In this document: piece after piece, positions 11,452 to 17,399 of the stretch
Layout: every line of letters begins with the position of its first letter
Numbering within the stretch: position 1 is the stretch's first letter
Origin: Pseudomonadota bacterium
GTDB lineage: Bacteria; Myxococcota; JACRCW01; JAFGSX01
Assembly: GCA_043821645.1 (NCBI GenBank)
Contig: JBDRCO010000098.1
Location: 1 to 24,105 of the forward strand
DNA: 24,105 nt
Direction: 5' to 3'
Translations under genes and position numbers: made by a program
The notes under the pieces: model-generated
What the model was told of the DNA's origin: nothing
What the model saw: the letters and a program-made list of their open reading frames with translations, nothing else
The model's database searches: none

Positions 11452-14400
11452 ATGGCCAGACATGCGAAGGGTCCCACCGCAGGCGATCACCTTTGGCGCC
11501 GTCGTCAACGACCGGCTGTCTTCGGTGGAGGTACCGGTCCGTCGCGCTGGCTCGCGCGCGTCCTCGGCCTCGGCCTGCTGCTGGGCTCGCCCGTGGTGGG
11601 CCGCGCCGCATCGGTGGAGCTGGTGTTTCGTGACTACCTGGTCTACCCGGACTTCGTGCAGAGCCTGCAGGGCGGCGCTGCGTTGACGCTCGGGCGCTGG
11701 GACTACCACGACGCTGGCGGCACCTGGATCGACGTGCCGCGGGTGATCAACGGCCACCTCGACGGACCCGGTACCGCAATCTCGGGCGCATTCAATGGAA
11801 TGCAGCCGGACCCGCACTGGAAGCGCATCGTGGTGCAGGGCTCCTTCCAGAGCCTGGAGCTGCGCGGTGCCGATGACGACGGCGCGCGTCGTGGACGTCC
11901 CGGTGCCTGGGGGAGCTGGCTCGCGGTGACGGGTCAGGACGTGCCCGCCACCCTGACCGACGCGCAGTACCTGAGCTACCGCATCACCCTGAATGGCGGC
12001 GACGTGGTGACCCAGATAGACCTCGTCATCGAGCCGGATCTTCGCGACGCGCACCCGCGCTTGCTGGTCGATGACCTGACGGACCTGCGTGCGCGCTGCA
12101 CCGGTGCGCTGTCGCACGCCTGCGACGTGAGCTCGATGTTCGCCAACTCCACCCACCTCACGGCAGCGCTGTCAGGCTACGACGCGTCGCAGCTGGCGCG
12201 CATCGCCAAGGTCATGGCCTTCGAGTACCTGGTGCGCGGCACGCCCCAGCACGCGGTGCGGGCGCGCGCCGTGCTGGCCCAGCTCGCCAGCCACGACAGG
12301 CAACACTGGGTGGACCTGCGCGATCAGATCCAGGATCTGGGTCTGGGCTGGATAGGCCTGAGCTGGATGCTGGCCCTGGACTGGGTCGTCGACAGCGTCG
12401 ACAGGCAGAACCCCACCGAGCTGGCCGAGCTGCAGACCATCGCCCAGGGCACGGTGGTGTTCGTCGACTACCTGCTCGAGATGTACAAGCACTCGGACTT
12501 CAACAACCACTTTCACCTGGGGCGCTCGCCGGTGCTGCTGGCGGGCCTGGCCCTTCACGACGAGGGCCTGGTGGACGCGGACGCCCGGCGCTACCTCGAC
12601 CAGGGTTTCGACCTGCTGTTCAACCACGCGCACCCGGGGCTCAACGTGGTGGCCGGCGACATGGGCGGCTGGCACGAGAGCCTGGGCTACTTCGACGGCG
12701 AGATGGGCCTGCCGCTGATGGTGGACATGGACGCGTTGCGCACCGCCACCGGCGTCGACTTCTTTCAGGACTCGAGCTTCTGGCGCAACCTGCCCTTCTG
12801 GTACCTGTCGTCGACGGTCAACAGCGACCTGTCGCTGATCCACTGGGCGGACCAGGGCAAGGACCGCTGGTCCACCGCGCTGGATGGCTCGGCCTCCGAG
12901 GGCAAGGGCACGCGCGACTACTTCACCGGCCTGCACAAGAACCTGGCGCGCCTGGGCTATGCCGAGGCCGAGCTGGCGCAGTACCTGCTCGACCAGCGCA
13001 TCGGCGCCTACTACGACTCCGGCAGCTACGGCGAGTCCTACTACAAGGTGGCGCACCTGAACGACGTGCTGTGGTACACGCCGGGGGCGCCGGCCTCGGG
13101 CCTGCCCAACGCGCCGGCGTCGAGCCACTTTGCCAACCTGGGCGAGGTGATCCTGCGCCAGGGCACGGACGCCGACGACGCCATGGCCATGTTCGCCTGC
13201 GCGGATTTTCGCGGCGGCCACCAGCAGGCCGACAACGGCCACTTCTCGATCTGGTACCGCGGCTACCTGGCCGTGGACTCGGGCTACTACGACGGCTGGG
13301 GCAGCGCGCACCACATGAACTACGCGCGGCGCAGCATCGCCCACAACACCCTGACCGTGACCATGCCCGGCGAAACCTTCTCGGGTACGGGCCACAACGA
13401 CGGCGGTCAGGCCTTTGCGTGTAACACCGACTACTACAACTCGCCGGCCCGGGATCCTGCCTGCGACGTCTGCGACATGTGGTTGAGCACGGGCAGCAGT
13501 CCGGCCTACGACTGGATAGATGCGGACCTGACAGCATCCTACGACCCGGCCAAGGTGACGACGGTGACCCGCAGCTTCGTCTGGCTGCGGCCGGATCTGT
13601 TCATCGTCCACGACCAGGTCGAGAGCACCCATGCGAGCTACCCCAAGCGCTTCCTGCTGCACGGGCTGGGACCCTTCGTCGCCAGCGGCAGCGACCACTA
13701 CGTGGACCAGGACAGCGGCCGCCTGTTCGTGCGCACCCTGCTGCCCGCGTCCGCGCAGACCGTGCAGGTGGGAGGCGCAGGCCACGAGTGGGAGGTCGAG
13801 GGCACCAACTACACGCCGTCGCGCGGTCTGGCCTTCTCGGGCACGCACAGGCTCGAAATCTCCCCGCCGACTTCCGCGGTGCGCGACACCTTCGTGCACG
13901 TGCTGCAGGTGGCAGATCAGGGCCTGTCCACGATGCAGGCCTCGACGCTGCTCACCGCCAGTGGCGCCCACGGCGTGCAGGTGGACAACTGGCTGGTGTG
14001 GTTCGGCGACCCCGGGCCGCTGAACGCGCTGAGCTACCAGGTGGACACTGGGTCGGCGACCCAGGTGCTCGTCGGCAGCCTCGCTGCCACCACGGCCTAC
14101 CAGGTCCAGAGCGGCAGCGGCGCAGCCTTCACCGCCACGACGGACGCGCACGGCGTGCTTTTCTTTGCGGACAGCGTGACGGGCTCGCACACGGTTACCG
14201 TGGGCGGGGGCACCCCGGCCGATGCGGGGCCTGGCGTCGACGCGGCGGTGACCACAGATGCCGCCACAAGCGCAGATGTCAGCACCCCGACGGACGCGAC
14301 CACGGCCAGCGATGTGGCCACCAGCGTGGATGGGGCGACGACAACCGATGCCGCGACGGGCGCGGATTCTTCCACCGCCGCGGATGCGTCGACGGGTCAG

Positions 14401-14634
14401 GACGCGGCAGCGGGCACCGATGCCGGGGTGGCCGCCGATGCCAGTGTTGTGGGCGACGCGAGCAGCGGCGCCGACGCGGTGATGCCGGCCCAGCCCGACG
14501 CTGGCGCCCCGGCGGTCGTGGGCAGCGGCTGCGACTGTGCGGCCTCCCCCGCCCGACAATCGTCAGCGCTGCTGGGTGTCGTGCTCAGCGCGGCAGTCCT
14601 GTGGCGACGACGCCGAGGCCCGGGTCGAGCCTGA
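11452..14634 (+). CDS. Secreted heparinase II/III-like polysaccharide lyase with MYXO-CTERM sorting signal
   Basis: Signal-like RWLARVLGLGLLLGSPVVGRAA. HPRLL, GGWHESLGY and GGHQQADNGHFSIWYRGYLAVDSGYY...HHMNYARRSIAHNTL fit the Hepar_II_III motif. Asp/Ala/Thr linker, then GCDCAAS...LLGVVLSAAVLWRRRR. Exact start uncertain. Confidence 0.82.
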   Translation: MARHAKGPTAGDHLWRRRQRPAVFGGGTGPSRWLARVLGLGLLLGSPVVGRAASVELVFRDYLVYPDFVQSLQGGAALTLGRWDYHDAGGTWIDVPRVINGHLDGPGTAISGAFNGMQPDPHWKRIVVQGSFQSLELRGADDDGARRGRPGAWGSWLAVTGQDVPATLTDAQYLSYRITLNGGDVVTQIDLVIEPDLRDAHPRLLVDDLTDLRARCTGALSHACDVSSMFANSTHLTAALSGYDASQLARIAKVMAFEYLVRGTPQHAVRARAVLAQLASHDRQHWVDLRDQIQDLGLGWIGLSWMLALDWVVDSVDRQNPTELAELQTIAQGTVVFVDYLLEMYKHSDFNNHFHLGRSPVLLAGLALHDEGLVDADARRYLDQGFDLLFNHAHPGLNVVAGDMGGWHESLGYFDGEMGLPLMVDMDALRTATGVDFFQDSSFWRNLPFWYLSSTVNSDLSLIHWADQGKDRWSTALDGSASEGKGTRDYFTGLHKNLARLGYAEAELAQYLLDQRIGAYYDSGSYGESYYKVAHLNDVLWYTPGAPASGLPNAPASSHFANLGEVILRQGTDADDAMAMFACADFRGGHQQADNGHFSIWYRGYLAVDSGYYDGWGSAHHMNYARRSIAHNTLTVTMPGETFSGTGHNDGGQAFACNTDYYNSPARDPACDVCDMWLSTGSSPAYDWIDADLTASYDPAKVTTVTRSFVWLRPDLFIVHDQVESTHASYPKRFLLHGLGPFVASGSDHYVDQDSGRLFVRTLLPASAQTVQVGGAGHEWEVEGTNYTPSRGLAFSGTHRLEISPPTSAVRDTFVHVLQVADQGLSTMQASTLLTASGAHGVQVDNWLVWFGDPGPLNALSYQVDTGSATQVLVGSLAATTAYQVQSGSGAAFTATTDAHGVLFFADSVTGSHTVTVGGGTPADAGPGVDAAVTTDAATSADVSTPTDATTASDVATSVDGATTTDAATGADSSTAADASTGQDAAAGTDAGVAADASVVGDASSGADAVMPAQPDAGAPAVVGSGCDCAASPARQSSALLGVVLSAAVLWRRRRGPGRA
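14212..14481 (+). repeat. 15 degenerate hexapeptide repeats (xxxD[A/V/G/S]x; 18-bp period) in the lyase linker
   Basis: TPADAG PGVDAA VTTDAA TSADVS TPTDAT TASDVA TSVDGA TTTDAA TGADSS TAADAS TGQDAA AGTDAG VAADAS VVGDAS SGADAV. Confidence 0.9.
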
Positions 14635-14655: not shown

Positions 14656-15048
14656 TCAACCCTCTCCCAGTGCCCGCGCGAAGGCATCGGGAAGCGGCAC
14701 CGGATGTCCCTGGTCGTCGGCGGTGACCATGCCGGTATGGCCCTCGACCAGCAGCTCGCGGCCGCCACCGTCGCCCAGCCTCTCGACCCGGCTGCCGAGC
14801 ACGAAGCCCTTGCGGCGCAGCTCCTGCACCCAGGTGCTGATCAGCAGCTCATCGTCAAAGCGTGCCGAGGCGCGGTAGCGACAGGCGGTGTCGGCGATGG
14901 GCAGGTGGCGGTCGTAGACCAGGCCGAGCTGGCGGAACATCTCGACCCGACCCAGCTCGAAGTAAACGAAGTAGGCCCCGTAGTAGACGATGCCGCTGGC
15001 GTCGGTCTCGGCGTAGCGCACGCGGGTGCGGGTCTCGTAGATCTTCAT
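14656..15048 (-). CDS. Acyl-CoA thioesterase (YbgC/4HBT hot-dog fold)
   Basis: RVRYAETDASGIVYYGAYFVYFELGRVE and CRYRASARFDDEL. ATG at 15048. Confidence 0.92.
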   Translation of the reverse strand: MKIYETRTRVRYAETDASGIVYYGAYFVYFELGRVEMFRQLGLVYDRHLPIADTACRYRASARFDDELLISTWVQELRRKGFVLGSRVERLGDGGGRELLVEGHTGMVTADDQGHPVPLPDAFARALGEG

Positions 15049-15054
15049 GGCGGG

Positions 15055-15083
15055 ATCATGGGTCAGCGACGAGGATCTGCCAA
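15055..15083 (-). promoter_or_regulatory. Putative promoter (TTGGCA-N17-CATGAT), 6 nt upstream of the thioesterase ATG
   Basis: Minus-strand match with canonical spacing. No Shine-Dalgarno before the ATG. Confidence 0.5.
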
Positions 15084-15113
15084 GTGCGGCTGCAACGCGC
15101 GCCCGGGCAGCTG

Positions 15114-17240
15114 CTACCACACCGCGATGCCACCCTGGCTGCACAGGCCGTCACAGGCATCGGCGGTGATGCTGGGGCTGAGCACGGCACCGGTGGCGAT
15201 GGACAGCCCGCTGCTCGAGGTGTTGAAGCGGAGACGCCCGGCGCCGCCCCCCCCTCCACCCTGGGCCGCGGTGTTTGGCGTCGAGGTGTACTGGTGACCT
15301 TGCTGGCCGTCGGGCGTGCTCGCGGCGCCGCCAAGCCCGCCACTGCCGGTCTCGGTGCCTGCCTTGGCCGCTCCACCCTGCGCTCGTTGTCGATCCGCGG
15401 TCCCTGTTTGGCCAGCCTGGCCAAAATCGGAGTCCGTTCAAGTGCAGTCGCCGCTGGCACCTCCCCCGCCAGCTGCCGTCACGAATGCGTTCTGTTCCAC
15501 GAAGACCAGGGGCGCCTCGATCAGGACGGCGCCGCCTGCACCGCCGCCGGCCCCGCCGGCATTGCCGGTCTGCCCACCGCCACCTCCCGCAGCCTGTATG
15601 CCACCACCCGCGGCGATGGTGATGCTCTCACCGGCAGAGATCTGCAGGGCGCCACCGCCGCCGCCCCCCGGGCCCAGCCAGTCACCCGCGGGCCCTTCCC
15701 CGACGACAATGGACTGTCCCGCGCCGCCGCTGCCGCCGACCAGGGGAACCAGCTCGGCGCTGCCGCAGACGCCGCCACCCTCGCCGCCACCCAGCCAGGT
15801 GCCGCTGCCATCTTGTGATGGACCGCCCTCGCCCCCCGCACCACCGTGGCCACCGCCGCCGCTGCCCTTGGAGTAGATGTTGGCGACATCGACGCCCACG
15901 CCGGGTTGCCCCGGGCAGGGACCGTCGCCCGCCACACCCTCGTCGCCACCGGAGAAGCCTCCTGGCCCTCCCGTCTCGGTGTAAAACCAGGGCCAGGTAT
16001 CGCCGATGTGTTCGGCCGTGCCCGTGGCACTGATATCGATGATGCCTGCCAGCTGTACGGTCTCGGTGGCGACCAGGGCCACGGCCCGGCTGCCCACGAT
16101 GCGAACGCGCACCCCGGAGGCCACGACCATGTTGCGTGCGCCGAACACCAGCAGCTGGGGCGCACCTGCTCCCTGGGACACGATGCTGTACTCCGAGGAG
16201 TCCAAGGGCGTGCCGTTGATGGTGATGGCCGTGGTGTCGACCACGACATCGGTGTCGAGGAGCACATCGAAATCCCAGCCGCCGATGAGGGTGCGGCTCA
16301 TGTTGGAGGGATCCAGCAGGTTGCAGCGGGCGGGGTCCTCGAACCCGTTGCAGCCGAGCGGGCAGGGCAGGGCGTCCTCGACCGAACCCGCGCTGTCGCA
16401 GGTGACCAGGATGTCACCGCGGCAGCTCACCTCTGCGGGAACGCAAACGCGGGTGTCCGGAAGCGCTGCGTCGGCGATGGCGGCGTCGGGATTCCCCGCG
16501 GCATCGCTCGCGCCGCCGCTGTCCAGCCCGCTGCTCGCGTCCGGGGAGCCGCTGGCGTCGTCACCACCGGCACCGTCGACAGCAGGCGCAGAGTCCGCTG
16601 CTCCGCCGCTGTCGTCGCTCGACGCGGCGTCACTGCCCGGTGTGGTGTCCCCGCTGGCGCTCGCATCTGCGTGTGCGCTGTCCATCGCCGTGGCATCGGC
16701 AGTCGCGACGTCATCGCCGCCGCCGTCGAGGGGCGCCTGATCCACGCTCCCGTTGTCGCTAGCGTGCAGGTCCAGACTCACGGCGTCGCCACCGCCGCCG
16801 TCGGCCACCAGGCAGCGACCGCCCTCGCAGCGTTGCGCCGCTGCGCAGCCCGCGCCGGAGGTGGCCTGCAGCGAGATGCGCAGGATGGCATCCTGCCCGG
16901 CCTGCAGCGTCTGCTCGACGCAGCCGTCGACGAAGACCAGGCAGCCGTCGTCGCGGACCTCGGCGCGAAAGGCCACGCGGCCGAAGCCCACCTCGCCCAG
17001 GGAGGGCATGGCGCCGCGCGCATCAAAGCTCAGGCGGGGAGCCAGGTTGGCCTGGCGCAGGGCCTCGCAGCTCAGGGCCTCGCCGACGAACAGGTCGACC
17101 CAGCGCGCGCGGTCCAGCGCAGCCTGGTCGGGATAGCTGAGGATGAGCTGGTAGCGGCCGCCCTCGCAGCACAGCGTGCCCAGGGCGAGCGCCGCGATCA
17201 GCGCCCCCTGTCTTGCCCAGCTGGCTGCGGCATGGCCCAC
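15114..17240 (-). CDS. Glycine-rich surface lipoprotein with in-frame TGA at codon 601; candidate selenoprotein (C-T-U), 708 aa (Gly-rich protein 2)
   Basis: GTG 17240 lies 6 nt after AGGAG. Lipoprotein-like signal ...IAALALGTLCC, then a beta domain, Cys repeat, Asp-rich linker and Gly-rich domain. After TGA (15440-15438) the frame stays open for 107 codons to TAG 15116-15114, encoding TDSDFGQAGQ...GGGGGGAGRLRFNT...VLSP...CDGLCSQGGIAVW. Confidence 0.78.
15398..15437 (-). promoter_or_regulatory. Candidate bacterial SECIS element
   Basis: mRNA: UGA ACGGACUCCGAU UUUGGCCA GGC UGGCCAAA CAGGGACCG. Perfect 8-bp upper stem, loop starting GG 20 nt after the UGA, lower stem CGG-A-CUC/GGG-A-CCG. Confidence 0.68.
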
Positions 17241-17399
17241 GTGACACTCCTGCCCGGTCCGTTCTGAGATGATGCCATCTCCGGTCGCATCCACCAAGTC
17301 CGCGTCGAGATTCGCCCGCGCAGCGCGGCACCAAGTTTGAGGCAGACCCGGCCCGTGCTACGCTTCACCGAGAGGACAGGACAGCCTCGTGGACGGATC

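Follow-up and report, generated by a model that had tools for sequence, protein, structure and literature searches.

A gene on the minus strand of a bacterial contig (JBDRCO010000098.1 of NCBI GenBank assembly GCA_043821645.1; all 24,105 nucleotides were analysed and are called the window here) is interrupted at codon 601 by an in-frame UGA, and the gene very probably is a genuine selenoprotein gene in which this UGA is decoded as selenocysteine (Sec). Comparative and structural evidence shows a recoded UGA601, a covarying selenocysteine insertion sequence (SECIS) candidate at the canonical distance, and a predicted 708-residue product that gains its last coils from codons past the UGA. A first-pass annotation of the same DNA, made from its letters and open reading frames (ORFs), had proposed a 708-residue exported selenoprotein at this site. 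That proposal is supported, and none of the outcomes that it had named as refuting occurred. On the sequence comparisons described below, the gene very probably represents a new and previously unrecognised selenoprotein family of a known kind.

The full read-through coding sequence runs on the minus strand from position 17240 to position 15114 and comprises 708 codons and a TAG stop. Its start codon is GTG (17240-17238), which is shared by the window's own protein as it stands in the database, a 600-residue entry (P0002); an alternative TTG lies at 17297. The in-frame TGA (15440-15438) directly follows ...GGGGASGDCT, and a further 107 codons (15437-15117) can be read in this frame before the TAG at 15116-15114, just as first described. 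Glycine-rich repeats flank the TGA, and every repeat quoted in the first-pass annotation is present: GGGGGGALQISA and GGGAGGAVLIEA stand upstream, whereas GGLGGAA and GGGGGGAGRLRFNT...VLSP stand downstream. The cysteine that it placed two residues ahead of the TGA, giving C-x-U, is Cys599 (codon TGC, 15446-15444), which is invariant in 11/11 rows of the alignment of Sec forms (A2). Reading through the TGA also reduces the distance to the next gene, a 4HBT thioesterase gene beginning with ATG at 15048, from 389 to 65 nucleotides. As had been suggested, this leaves room for a promoter of that gene: the sole sigma-70-like site found across 14950-15500 (minus strand, 15083-15055) sits inside the 65-nucleotide gap, although it is a consensus match only and serves as context.

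An open frame of this length is no evidence of translation when taken alone. The window is GC-rich (about 71%), and at least 107 open codons follow the stop in 118 of its 628 stops, counted over all six frames. The significance of the TGA read-through rests on comparative evidence. The G+C content at third codon positions (GC3) in this frame is 0.8-0.97 in the gene body, falls to about 0.6 over some 35 codons past the TGA, and is again 0.80-0.90 across 15330-15114. A frameshift in place of read-through was considered and rejected, since past the TGA both remaining frames translate into meaningless Arg/Pro-rich sequence and the in-frame GC3 regains its high values.

The comparisons indicate that the 107-codon extension is translated, conserved coding sequence. 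It aligns among all Sec forms and with uninterrupted homologs, and the invariant columns after the UGA include G-x-x-G-x-x-G, GG-GG, GGGGG..G-R-I-R-x-N, and S-P. The extension holds GGGGGGAGRLRFN, VLSP, and a C-terminal CxxxC...W. Purifying selection on these 107 codons, which had been named as a check, is apparent: across 12 pairs, the ratio of nonsynonymous to synonymous substitution rates (dN/dS; Nei-Gojobori) is 0.12-0.69 for the extension, below 1 and similar to the 0.17-0.56 found upstream. In three relatives (L029, L030, and L035), a Cys followed by a hydrophobic stretch and an Arg-rich end, resembling a sorting tail, is located after the UGA. With the MYXO-CTERM model TIGR03382 (cut-off 15.85 bits), L030 passes at 16.2 bits, L029 falls just under at 15.4 bits, and L035 has no match.

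These results bear on an alternative in which the TGA is a true stop, the product has 600 residues, and what follows is either a relic that escapes translation or a small ORF translated on its own. Gene callers annotate the 600-residue form everywhere, and both the abundance of open frames after stops in the window and the fall of GC3 just past the TGA would fit this explanation. Nevertheless, it is very improbable. The extension is under constraint like that on the gene body across lineages that are only 38-55% identical, it completes the predicted fold, and uninterrupted homologs run straight through the site. Also, no in-frame ATG, GTG, or TTG occurs in the first 18 codons past the TGA in the window, and the GC3 dip in most other Sec forms is deepest at the codons of a hairpin described below, while it is absent in non-Sec homologs.

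Homologs with a TGA at the same site and conservation on both sides of it, which the first-pass annotation regarded as support, are present in phylum genomes, species-representative genomes, and metagenomes alike. Overall, Myxococcota genomes and metagenomes hold at least 45 loci, with at least 34 distinct sequences among them, that have a TGA at the aligned D-C-x-U site. When residues 330-708 of the read-through protein were used to query a protein database, 8000 candidates were scored and 155 of them matched at E <= 0.001, 120 of these matches being listed. Among those listed, 22 end exactly at ...GGGG..DC followed by T, H, N, or S, including the window's own entry, and these are database proteins truncated in the anticipated manner. 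Other database homologs are uninterrupted and align with the window's frame after the TGA through to the C-terminus.

A six-frame search of 401 genomes of the phylum gave matches in at least 31 of them, which is a floor because a stricter first look was applied. Thirty-five of the phylum loci were aligned. The TGA occupies the identical site in 11 loci from nine genomes, another residue is found there in 20 (G in six, Y in five, A in four, C in two, and R, I, and W in one each), and four have no aligned residue. Similarly, species-representative genomes were scanned with a DNA motif, A-N-G-G-G-G-x3-D-C-x-TGA, from which the hairpin was left out. Of the 24 stretches recovered, one is a chance match and 23 carry the conserved extension, with lengths of 88-230 residues; the record titles of these 23 name metagenome-assembled genomes of Myxococcota, Myxococcales, Polyangia, or 'Deltaproteobacteria'. 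A metagenome scan with the same motif, but with the codon after D-C-x left open, yielded at least 80 loci. Family members account for 11 among the matches listed, with TGA at the site in 11/11, and the other 69 are unrelated.

The wider family is large. A profile searched against 1.84 billion representatives of 50%-identity clusters matched 12,945 clusters at E <= 0.001, 8,021 at 1e-10, and 3,075 at 1e-30. Among the best 150 of the 12,945 representatives, 34 end exactly at ...DCx. Taken together, the sequence data place the gene in a large family centred on Myxococcota, within which a subfamily carries C-x-U and is systematically annotated as proteins truncated at ...DCx.

An error of sequencing or assembly, or a decaying gene with a nonsense mutation of its own, can be regarded as practically negligible. 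The window does come from a fragmented assembly of 140 contigs. However, contigs of two public sequencing runs from two studies (X1 and X2) span the TGA site without a difference; X1 probably is the source sample of the window's assembly and X2 is independent. The contigs of both runs are of DNA type, and the stretch was found in no RNA run. A sense codon in the reads, which had been named as a refuting outcome, did not appear, and the contigs of both runs confirm the TGA. Furthermore, the TGA recurs at the same site in the at least 34 distinct sequences, which come from independent assemblies, and the comparative data have already refuted this explanation.

The RNA that follows the UGA provides a second line of evidence. 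In the window, the predicted hairpin (minus strand, 15425-15407) has an 8-bp stem in which positions 16-23, counted from the U of UGA, pair with positions 27-34 around a GGC loop (15417-15415). The same bases encode F-G-Q-A-G-Q-T. Between the UGA and the loop lie 20 nucleotides, and the core energy amounts to -9.7 kcal/mol. In the published model of bacterial SECIS elements, the loop has 3-9 nucleotides, a G occurs in its first two positions, the stem measures 4-16 bp with a spacing of 16-37 nucleotides, and the minimum free energy is <= -7.5 kcal/mol (PMC13188914); the window hairpin falls within all four constraints. A common hairpin with a 3-nucleotide loop, G first, an 8-bp stem, and a 20-nucleotide spacing is found in 21 of 24 aligned loci, with core energies of -9.1 to -14.6 kcal/mol. 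Pairing is present in 93.5% of 186 cells from the 24 loci compared with 7.5-44.6% with slid partners, a control that is inflated because the structure was derived from the same, mutually related sequences. Both sides of a pair have changed in 21 cells, a count matched by 0 of 500 shuffles, and compensatory change is seen at four of the eight pairs. The 11 family loci among the listed metagenome matches, which were found without reference to the hairpin and offer a more independent check, all fold into the common structure and add new compensatory variants. The SECIS-like hairpin noticed in the first pass is thus borne out as an 8-bp stem with a GGC loop that covaries among loci.

Codon usage, a second check of this more independent sort, appears to carry the mark of this structure as well. 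Over the 12 codons past the UGA, GC3 is 0.61 in 22 Sec forms compared with 0.80 in the flanks, and the corresponding part of 19 non-Sec homologs also stands at 0.80. The lowest values in most other Sec-form loci fall on the 12 hairpin codons (mean 0.61, compared with 0.75 over the next 23), whereas the window's dip lasts for about 35 codons (0.58, then 0.61). Judging from these values, the dip in Sec forms is the footprint of an RNA constraint overlying the coding sequence. A search of positions 15300-15520 against Rfam at a permissive E-value found no SECIS family and returned just a chance match to BLV_package at 12 bits.

Decoding of UGA601 as Sec would depend on the cellular Sec machinery, and the genes whose presence had been suggested as a check are all in place. 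In the window's assembly (7.07 Mb, 140 contigs, 94.7% complete), selD (387.7 bits), selA (531.3 bits), selB (256.3 bits), and tRNA-Sec (78.6 bits, the selC product) all score above the curated cut-offs. The selD gene of this genome (L001, G000:C87:204011-204937, minus strand) has one in-frame TGA, and by this sign its SelD is itself a selenoprotein. An in-frame TGA also occurs in selD of carrier genome G110, and none occurs in selD of G235. The selA gene was found in six of the eight other carrier genomes. Of the two remaining, G235 has tRNA-Sec (73.5 bits) and selD, and G110 has its TGA-containing selD, so that all nine carrier genomes show Sec-trait genes.

A number of observations weigh against this interpretation, in addition to the inflated control mentioned above. 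The selA gene was not found in G235 (96% complete) or in G110 (81% complete). Moreover, 293 of the 401 phylum genomes sampled carry selA, which is therefore common regardless, and this makes its co-occurrence with the gene weakly informative. Three of the 24 aligned loci (the GRPGGRG clade) depart from the common hairpin; all that they form at about that distance from the UGA is another, weaker one. A Cys-for-Sec form, D-C-x-C, was found in none of the 120 listed proteins, the best 150 cluster representatives, or the 11 listed metagenome family loci. Among 40 ORFs around 13 Sec-form loci, no recurrent neighbour family hints at a pathway. Finally, the case for Sec at residue 601 is comparative and computational throughout, and the role proposed below for C-x-U is inferred.

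Some of these points would also suit an explanation in which the UGA is recoded with no selenocysteine involved, the hairpin instead stimulating near-cognate read-through with Trp, Cys, or Arg to give a full-length, selenium-free protein. The lack of Cys-for-Sec homologs in the samples searched, the two carrier genomes in which selA was not found, and a case for selenium that rests on comparison and computation are all compatible with it. Even so, it is improbable. The hairpin agrees with every constraint on a bacterial SECIS, including the small, G-first apical loop and the spacing, and Sec-trait genes accompany the gene in all nine carrier genomes. Sec redox and metal motifs typically have a Cys like the invariant one found here two residues ahead of the UGA, and C-x-U families are among those listed in the recent review (PMC13188914). 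In addition, sense codons should be frequent at the site if a standard residue sufficed there, yet all 11 D-C-bearing family loci among the listed metagenome matches have TGA.

The relatives without Sec offer hints regarding how the motif has evolved. In one pattern, both Cys and Sec are missing, as in the paralog L052, which has G-L-A. In another, Cys is kept and Thr, Ser, or Ile stands at the Sec site. In a third, seen in one clade, a single Cys (..YCP..) aligns ambiguously, to C599 or, in two loci, to U601. A quick maximum-likelihood tree of 67 rows places 19/19 Sec forms in one clade, alongside 23 non-Sec forms, with a support of 95 in the Shimodaira-Hasegawa-like approximate likelihood ratio test (SH-aLRT). 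At least three changes of Sec state are needed on this tree, its starred branches force two, and the non-Sec paralog L052 is nested inside the window's own clade (support 98). Since the tree is unrooted, gains and losses of Sec are indistinguishable on it.

Several Sec-form proteins have an extra C-x-C in an earlier Gly-rich turn of this domain (GDC followed by S or T and C, GACSC, GDCDC, or GACTC), for example at position 271 of P0017, 285 of P0020, and 269 of P0019, and in loci L054, L057, and L060. The C-x-U loop may have its sulfur counterpart here. Also, the window genome holds a second, distant paralog (G000:C76:44691-45764, minus strand, E 5.9e-13) with one in-frame TAG within the match, which could mean that two genes are present, that the gene is broken, or that the alignment is at fault.

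The predicted protein begins with a lipoprotein-type signal (17240-17166) and continues with a small N-terminal domain, an acidic low-complexity linker, a Cys-rich module, and the Gly-rich domain. The signal was read by eye and has a lipobox-like ...LGTLCC at residues 20-25, in which C25 is nearly invariant, its column reaching at least 90% conservation across homologs. By these features, the product probably is exported and lipid-anchored. The linker (about residues 156-270; 16775-16431) is rich in Asp, Ala, Ser, and Gly in translation and unconserved in the homolog alignment. The part of the Gly-rich domain that precedes the UGA corresponds to about residues 310-600 (16313-15441), as delimited by homology, modelling, and fold search. 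An AlphaFold2 (AF2) model of residues 270-708, built with a 38-row alignment, has a predicted local distance difference test score (pLDDT) of 89.9 and a predicted template modelling score of 0.90, with gene body and extension forming one domain; the pLDDT values of the extension, taken in blocks of 10 residues, are 74-97. Model residues 320-399, which contain C330 and U332 in the model's numbering, are confidently predicted and lack regular strands in DSSP. On this model, the C-terminal 400 or so residues are one Gly-rich right-handed beta-helix, to which the segment after the UGA contributes the last coils and the cap.

The glycine-rich, non-thioredoxin fold anticipated in the first-pass annotation is therefore recovered by both modelling and structural search as a Gly-rich beta-helix. 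Membership in the thioredoxin class finds no backing from the model, from the motif, which is C-x-U and not of the CxxC type, or from Pfam, in which no thioredoxin-like match was obtained. A Foldseek search of the PDB with the AF2 model returned nothing at E <= 0.001. The best structural matches in VIA-align have Z scores of 10.1-8.4, root-mean-square deviations (rmsd) of 2.2-3.5 A, 120-152 aligned residues, and 8-20% identity, and they cover model residues 40-439, including the extension. They comprise EtpA (8vba_A; Z 10.1, 127 aligned residues, rmsd 2.2 A), HxuA (4i84; Z 9.8), HMW1 (2odl; Z 9.7), HpmA (4w8q; Z 9.6), an ice-binding protein (7bwx; Z 9.3), and FHA (1rwr; Z 8.9). The resemblance is one of fold class only, and membership in a family is not implied. 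The read-through protein matched 0 families in Pfam and 0 in NCBIfam release 20.0. A MYXO-CTERM tail is absent from the window protein, whose C-terminus is ...CDGLCSQGGIAVW, with 0 NCBIfam matches. Three giant proteins, P0122 (7437 residues), P0124 (4063 residues), and P0125 (5597 residues), have five to nine matched stretches of the Gly-rich domain each, so this domain also occurs in tandem arrays.

If selenocysteine is indeed inserted, expression of the gene would proceed as follows. SelB carrying Sec-tRNA(Sec) would bind the SECIS hairpin, which starts 13 nucleotides past the UGA and presents its apical loop 20 nucleotides past it. The ribosome would insert Sec at UGA601 and then translate the 107 codons to the UAG. 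The product would be a 708-residue exported and probably lipid-anchored protein that displays D-C-x-U on a Gly-rich turn outside the cytoplasm. Tentatively, D-C-x-U may serve there as a selenenylsulfide (Cys-Sec) redox pair or as a soft-metal or metalloid site, exposed on a surface-anchored solenoid. A bolder extension of this proposal, which is speculative and unlikely in its entirety, envisions a surface-displayed selenol on a Gly-rich beta-solenoid with no thiol-oxidoreductase ancestry, where Sec does extracellularly what sulfur cannot. The C-x-U unit comes and goes whole, with no Cys-for-Sec intermediate found, which would suggest such a use. The selenol might covalently capture thiol-bearing or soft-metal or metalloid ligands, for instance in contact with prey or mineral surfaces. 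Since the C-terminal cap and, in some clades, a sorting tail lie after the UGA, selenium supply would gate the completion and anchoring of the protein.

A related idea is that both products matter, in that Sec insertion is inefficient and selenium supply sets the ratio of 600- to 708-residue forms, the short form being devoid of the last coils and, in some clades, of the C-terminal sorting tail. This is an add-on and does not exclude Sec decoding. In its favour, decoding of UGA as Sec competes with release factor 2, and the sorting-type tail lies after the UGA in the three relatives described above. On the other hand, a truncated form would break the predicted single domain and may simply be degraded. 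A functional role for both products, while conceivable, seems rather unlikely.

Other features near the gene or encountered in the searches are recorded here as separate observations. The 4HBT-type thioesterase gene (14656-15048, minus strand) lies 65 nucleotides downstream on the same strand with no terminator-like site, and the pairing of the two genes is unconserved in other loci. Convergent with it is a plus-strand gene (11452-14634) for a 1060-residue heparinase II/III-like protein (PF07940; HepB-like in NCBIfam at 126.9 bits, far under the cut-off), the tail of which matches the MYXO-CTERM model TIGR03901 at 21.6 bits (cut-off 20 bits). Directly upstream of one Sec-form gene, a protein with PDZ and AhpC/TSA/thioredoxin-like parts is encoded (L071:2766-4100, minus strand), and a Trx7/PDZ selenoprotein family is among the families in the review (PMC13188914). 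The chance motif matches in metagenomes include a recurrent family of small Cys-rich ORFs (...YPVCMHVYSG-ANGGGG-EWYDC-SFTSLPQC...) that is unrelated to the selenoprotein; its loci are L085, L090, L107, L115, L118, L124, L138, L142, L144, L146, L154, L156, and L159.

The candidate family would add a large and unrecognised group to the prokaryotic selenoproteome, with at least 34 of the best 150 50%-identity clusters being putative Sec forms within a domain family of 12,945 clusters. It departs from the usual thioredoxin-like redox enzymes in its phylum (Myxococcota), its predicted fold (a Gly-rich beta-helix), and its putative location (an exported lipoprotein). It seems that hundreds of database entries have been shortened by some 90-230 residues. 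They could be corrected by means of an annotation signature, ...ANGGGGxxxDCx-TGA followed by a GGCCAG-N3-CUGGCC hairpin. Because no Cys homolog was found, searches that rely on Cys/Sec pairs would miss the family. Furthermore, the SECIS candidate overlaps the conserved peptide G-Q-A-G-Q, so that one set of bases is under constraint from the RNA structure and from the protein sequence alike, and this offers a test case for overlapping constraints.

Comparison with known systems begins with the 119 prokaryotic selenoprotein families in Table 1 of a 2026 review, every one of which has a domain model (PMC13188914). That table includes no Gly-rich, beta-helix, or Myxococcota family, and no listed model matches the window protein. 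This result, along with the lack of Pfam and NCBIfam matches, agrees with the initial impression that no described family could be recognised. Neither that review nor the available text of the BSepDB paper contains the string 'Myxococc'. No description of a Gly-rich or Myxococcota selenoprotein family like that of the window was found in the literature searched, and the family may already stand in a supplementary list.

The closest parallels in motif are the C-x-U selenoproteins of the review, namely rhodanese-like form 3 (NF041203), UshA-like (NF041198), thioredoxin-like Sec.1, and ferredoxin-thioredoxin reductase (NF041072) proteins (PMC13188914). Like them, the window gene has an in-frame UGA with a SECIS candidate directly downstream, a Cys two residues ahead of the proposed Sec, and database entries truncated at the UGA. 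Unlike them, it has a predicted Gly-rich beta-helix in place of a rhodanese, thioredoxin, or metallophosphatase fold, it encodes a putative exported lipoprotein, and its family has yielded no Cys-for-Sec form in the samples searched; there is no sequence relation. In lying outside the thioredoxin fold, the family resembles the MerB-like SaoL and other 'unexpected' families (Haft and Gwadz, bioRxiv 10.1101/2022.07.06.499078). Those proteins are reported to have the motif CU rather than C-x-U and to come from anaerobes, where they are cytoplasmic or belong to ABC transport and their gene neighbourhoods are conserved, whereas no conserved neighbour was found for the window family.

In structure, the nearest likenesses are beta-helices of two-partner-secretion (TPS) proteins and adhesins (EtpA 8vba/8cpk, HxuA 4i84, HMW1 2odl, HpmA 4w8q, and FHA 1rwr) and ice-binding beta-solenoids (7bwx and 3wp9), which are the best structural matches and share a generic solenoid likeness only. 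The window protein differs from these in having a lipoprotein-type signal rather than a two-partner-secretion signal, and in its long Gly runs, which they lack. The Gly-rich receptor-binding domain of T-even phage gp38 (9v85) is the top row in Foldseek, where it is non-significant (E 0.84). In VIA-align, gp38 (9v85_C) has a weak Z score of 7.0 and yet the longest aligned stretch, 174/222 residues. The gp38 protein forms a polyglycine-II sandwich. Both it and the window domain are rich in poly-Gly runs that lack regular strands, and gp38 has neither Sec nor a shared sequence family. Lastly, while the window protein lacks such a tail, its three relatives with Cys, hydrophobic, and Arg-rich C-termini resemble the MYXO-CTERM-sorted surface proteins of Myxococcota.

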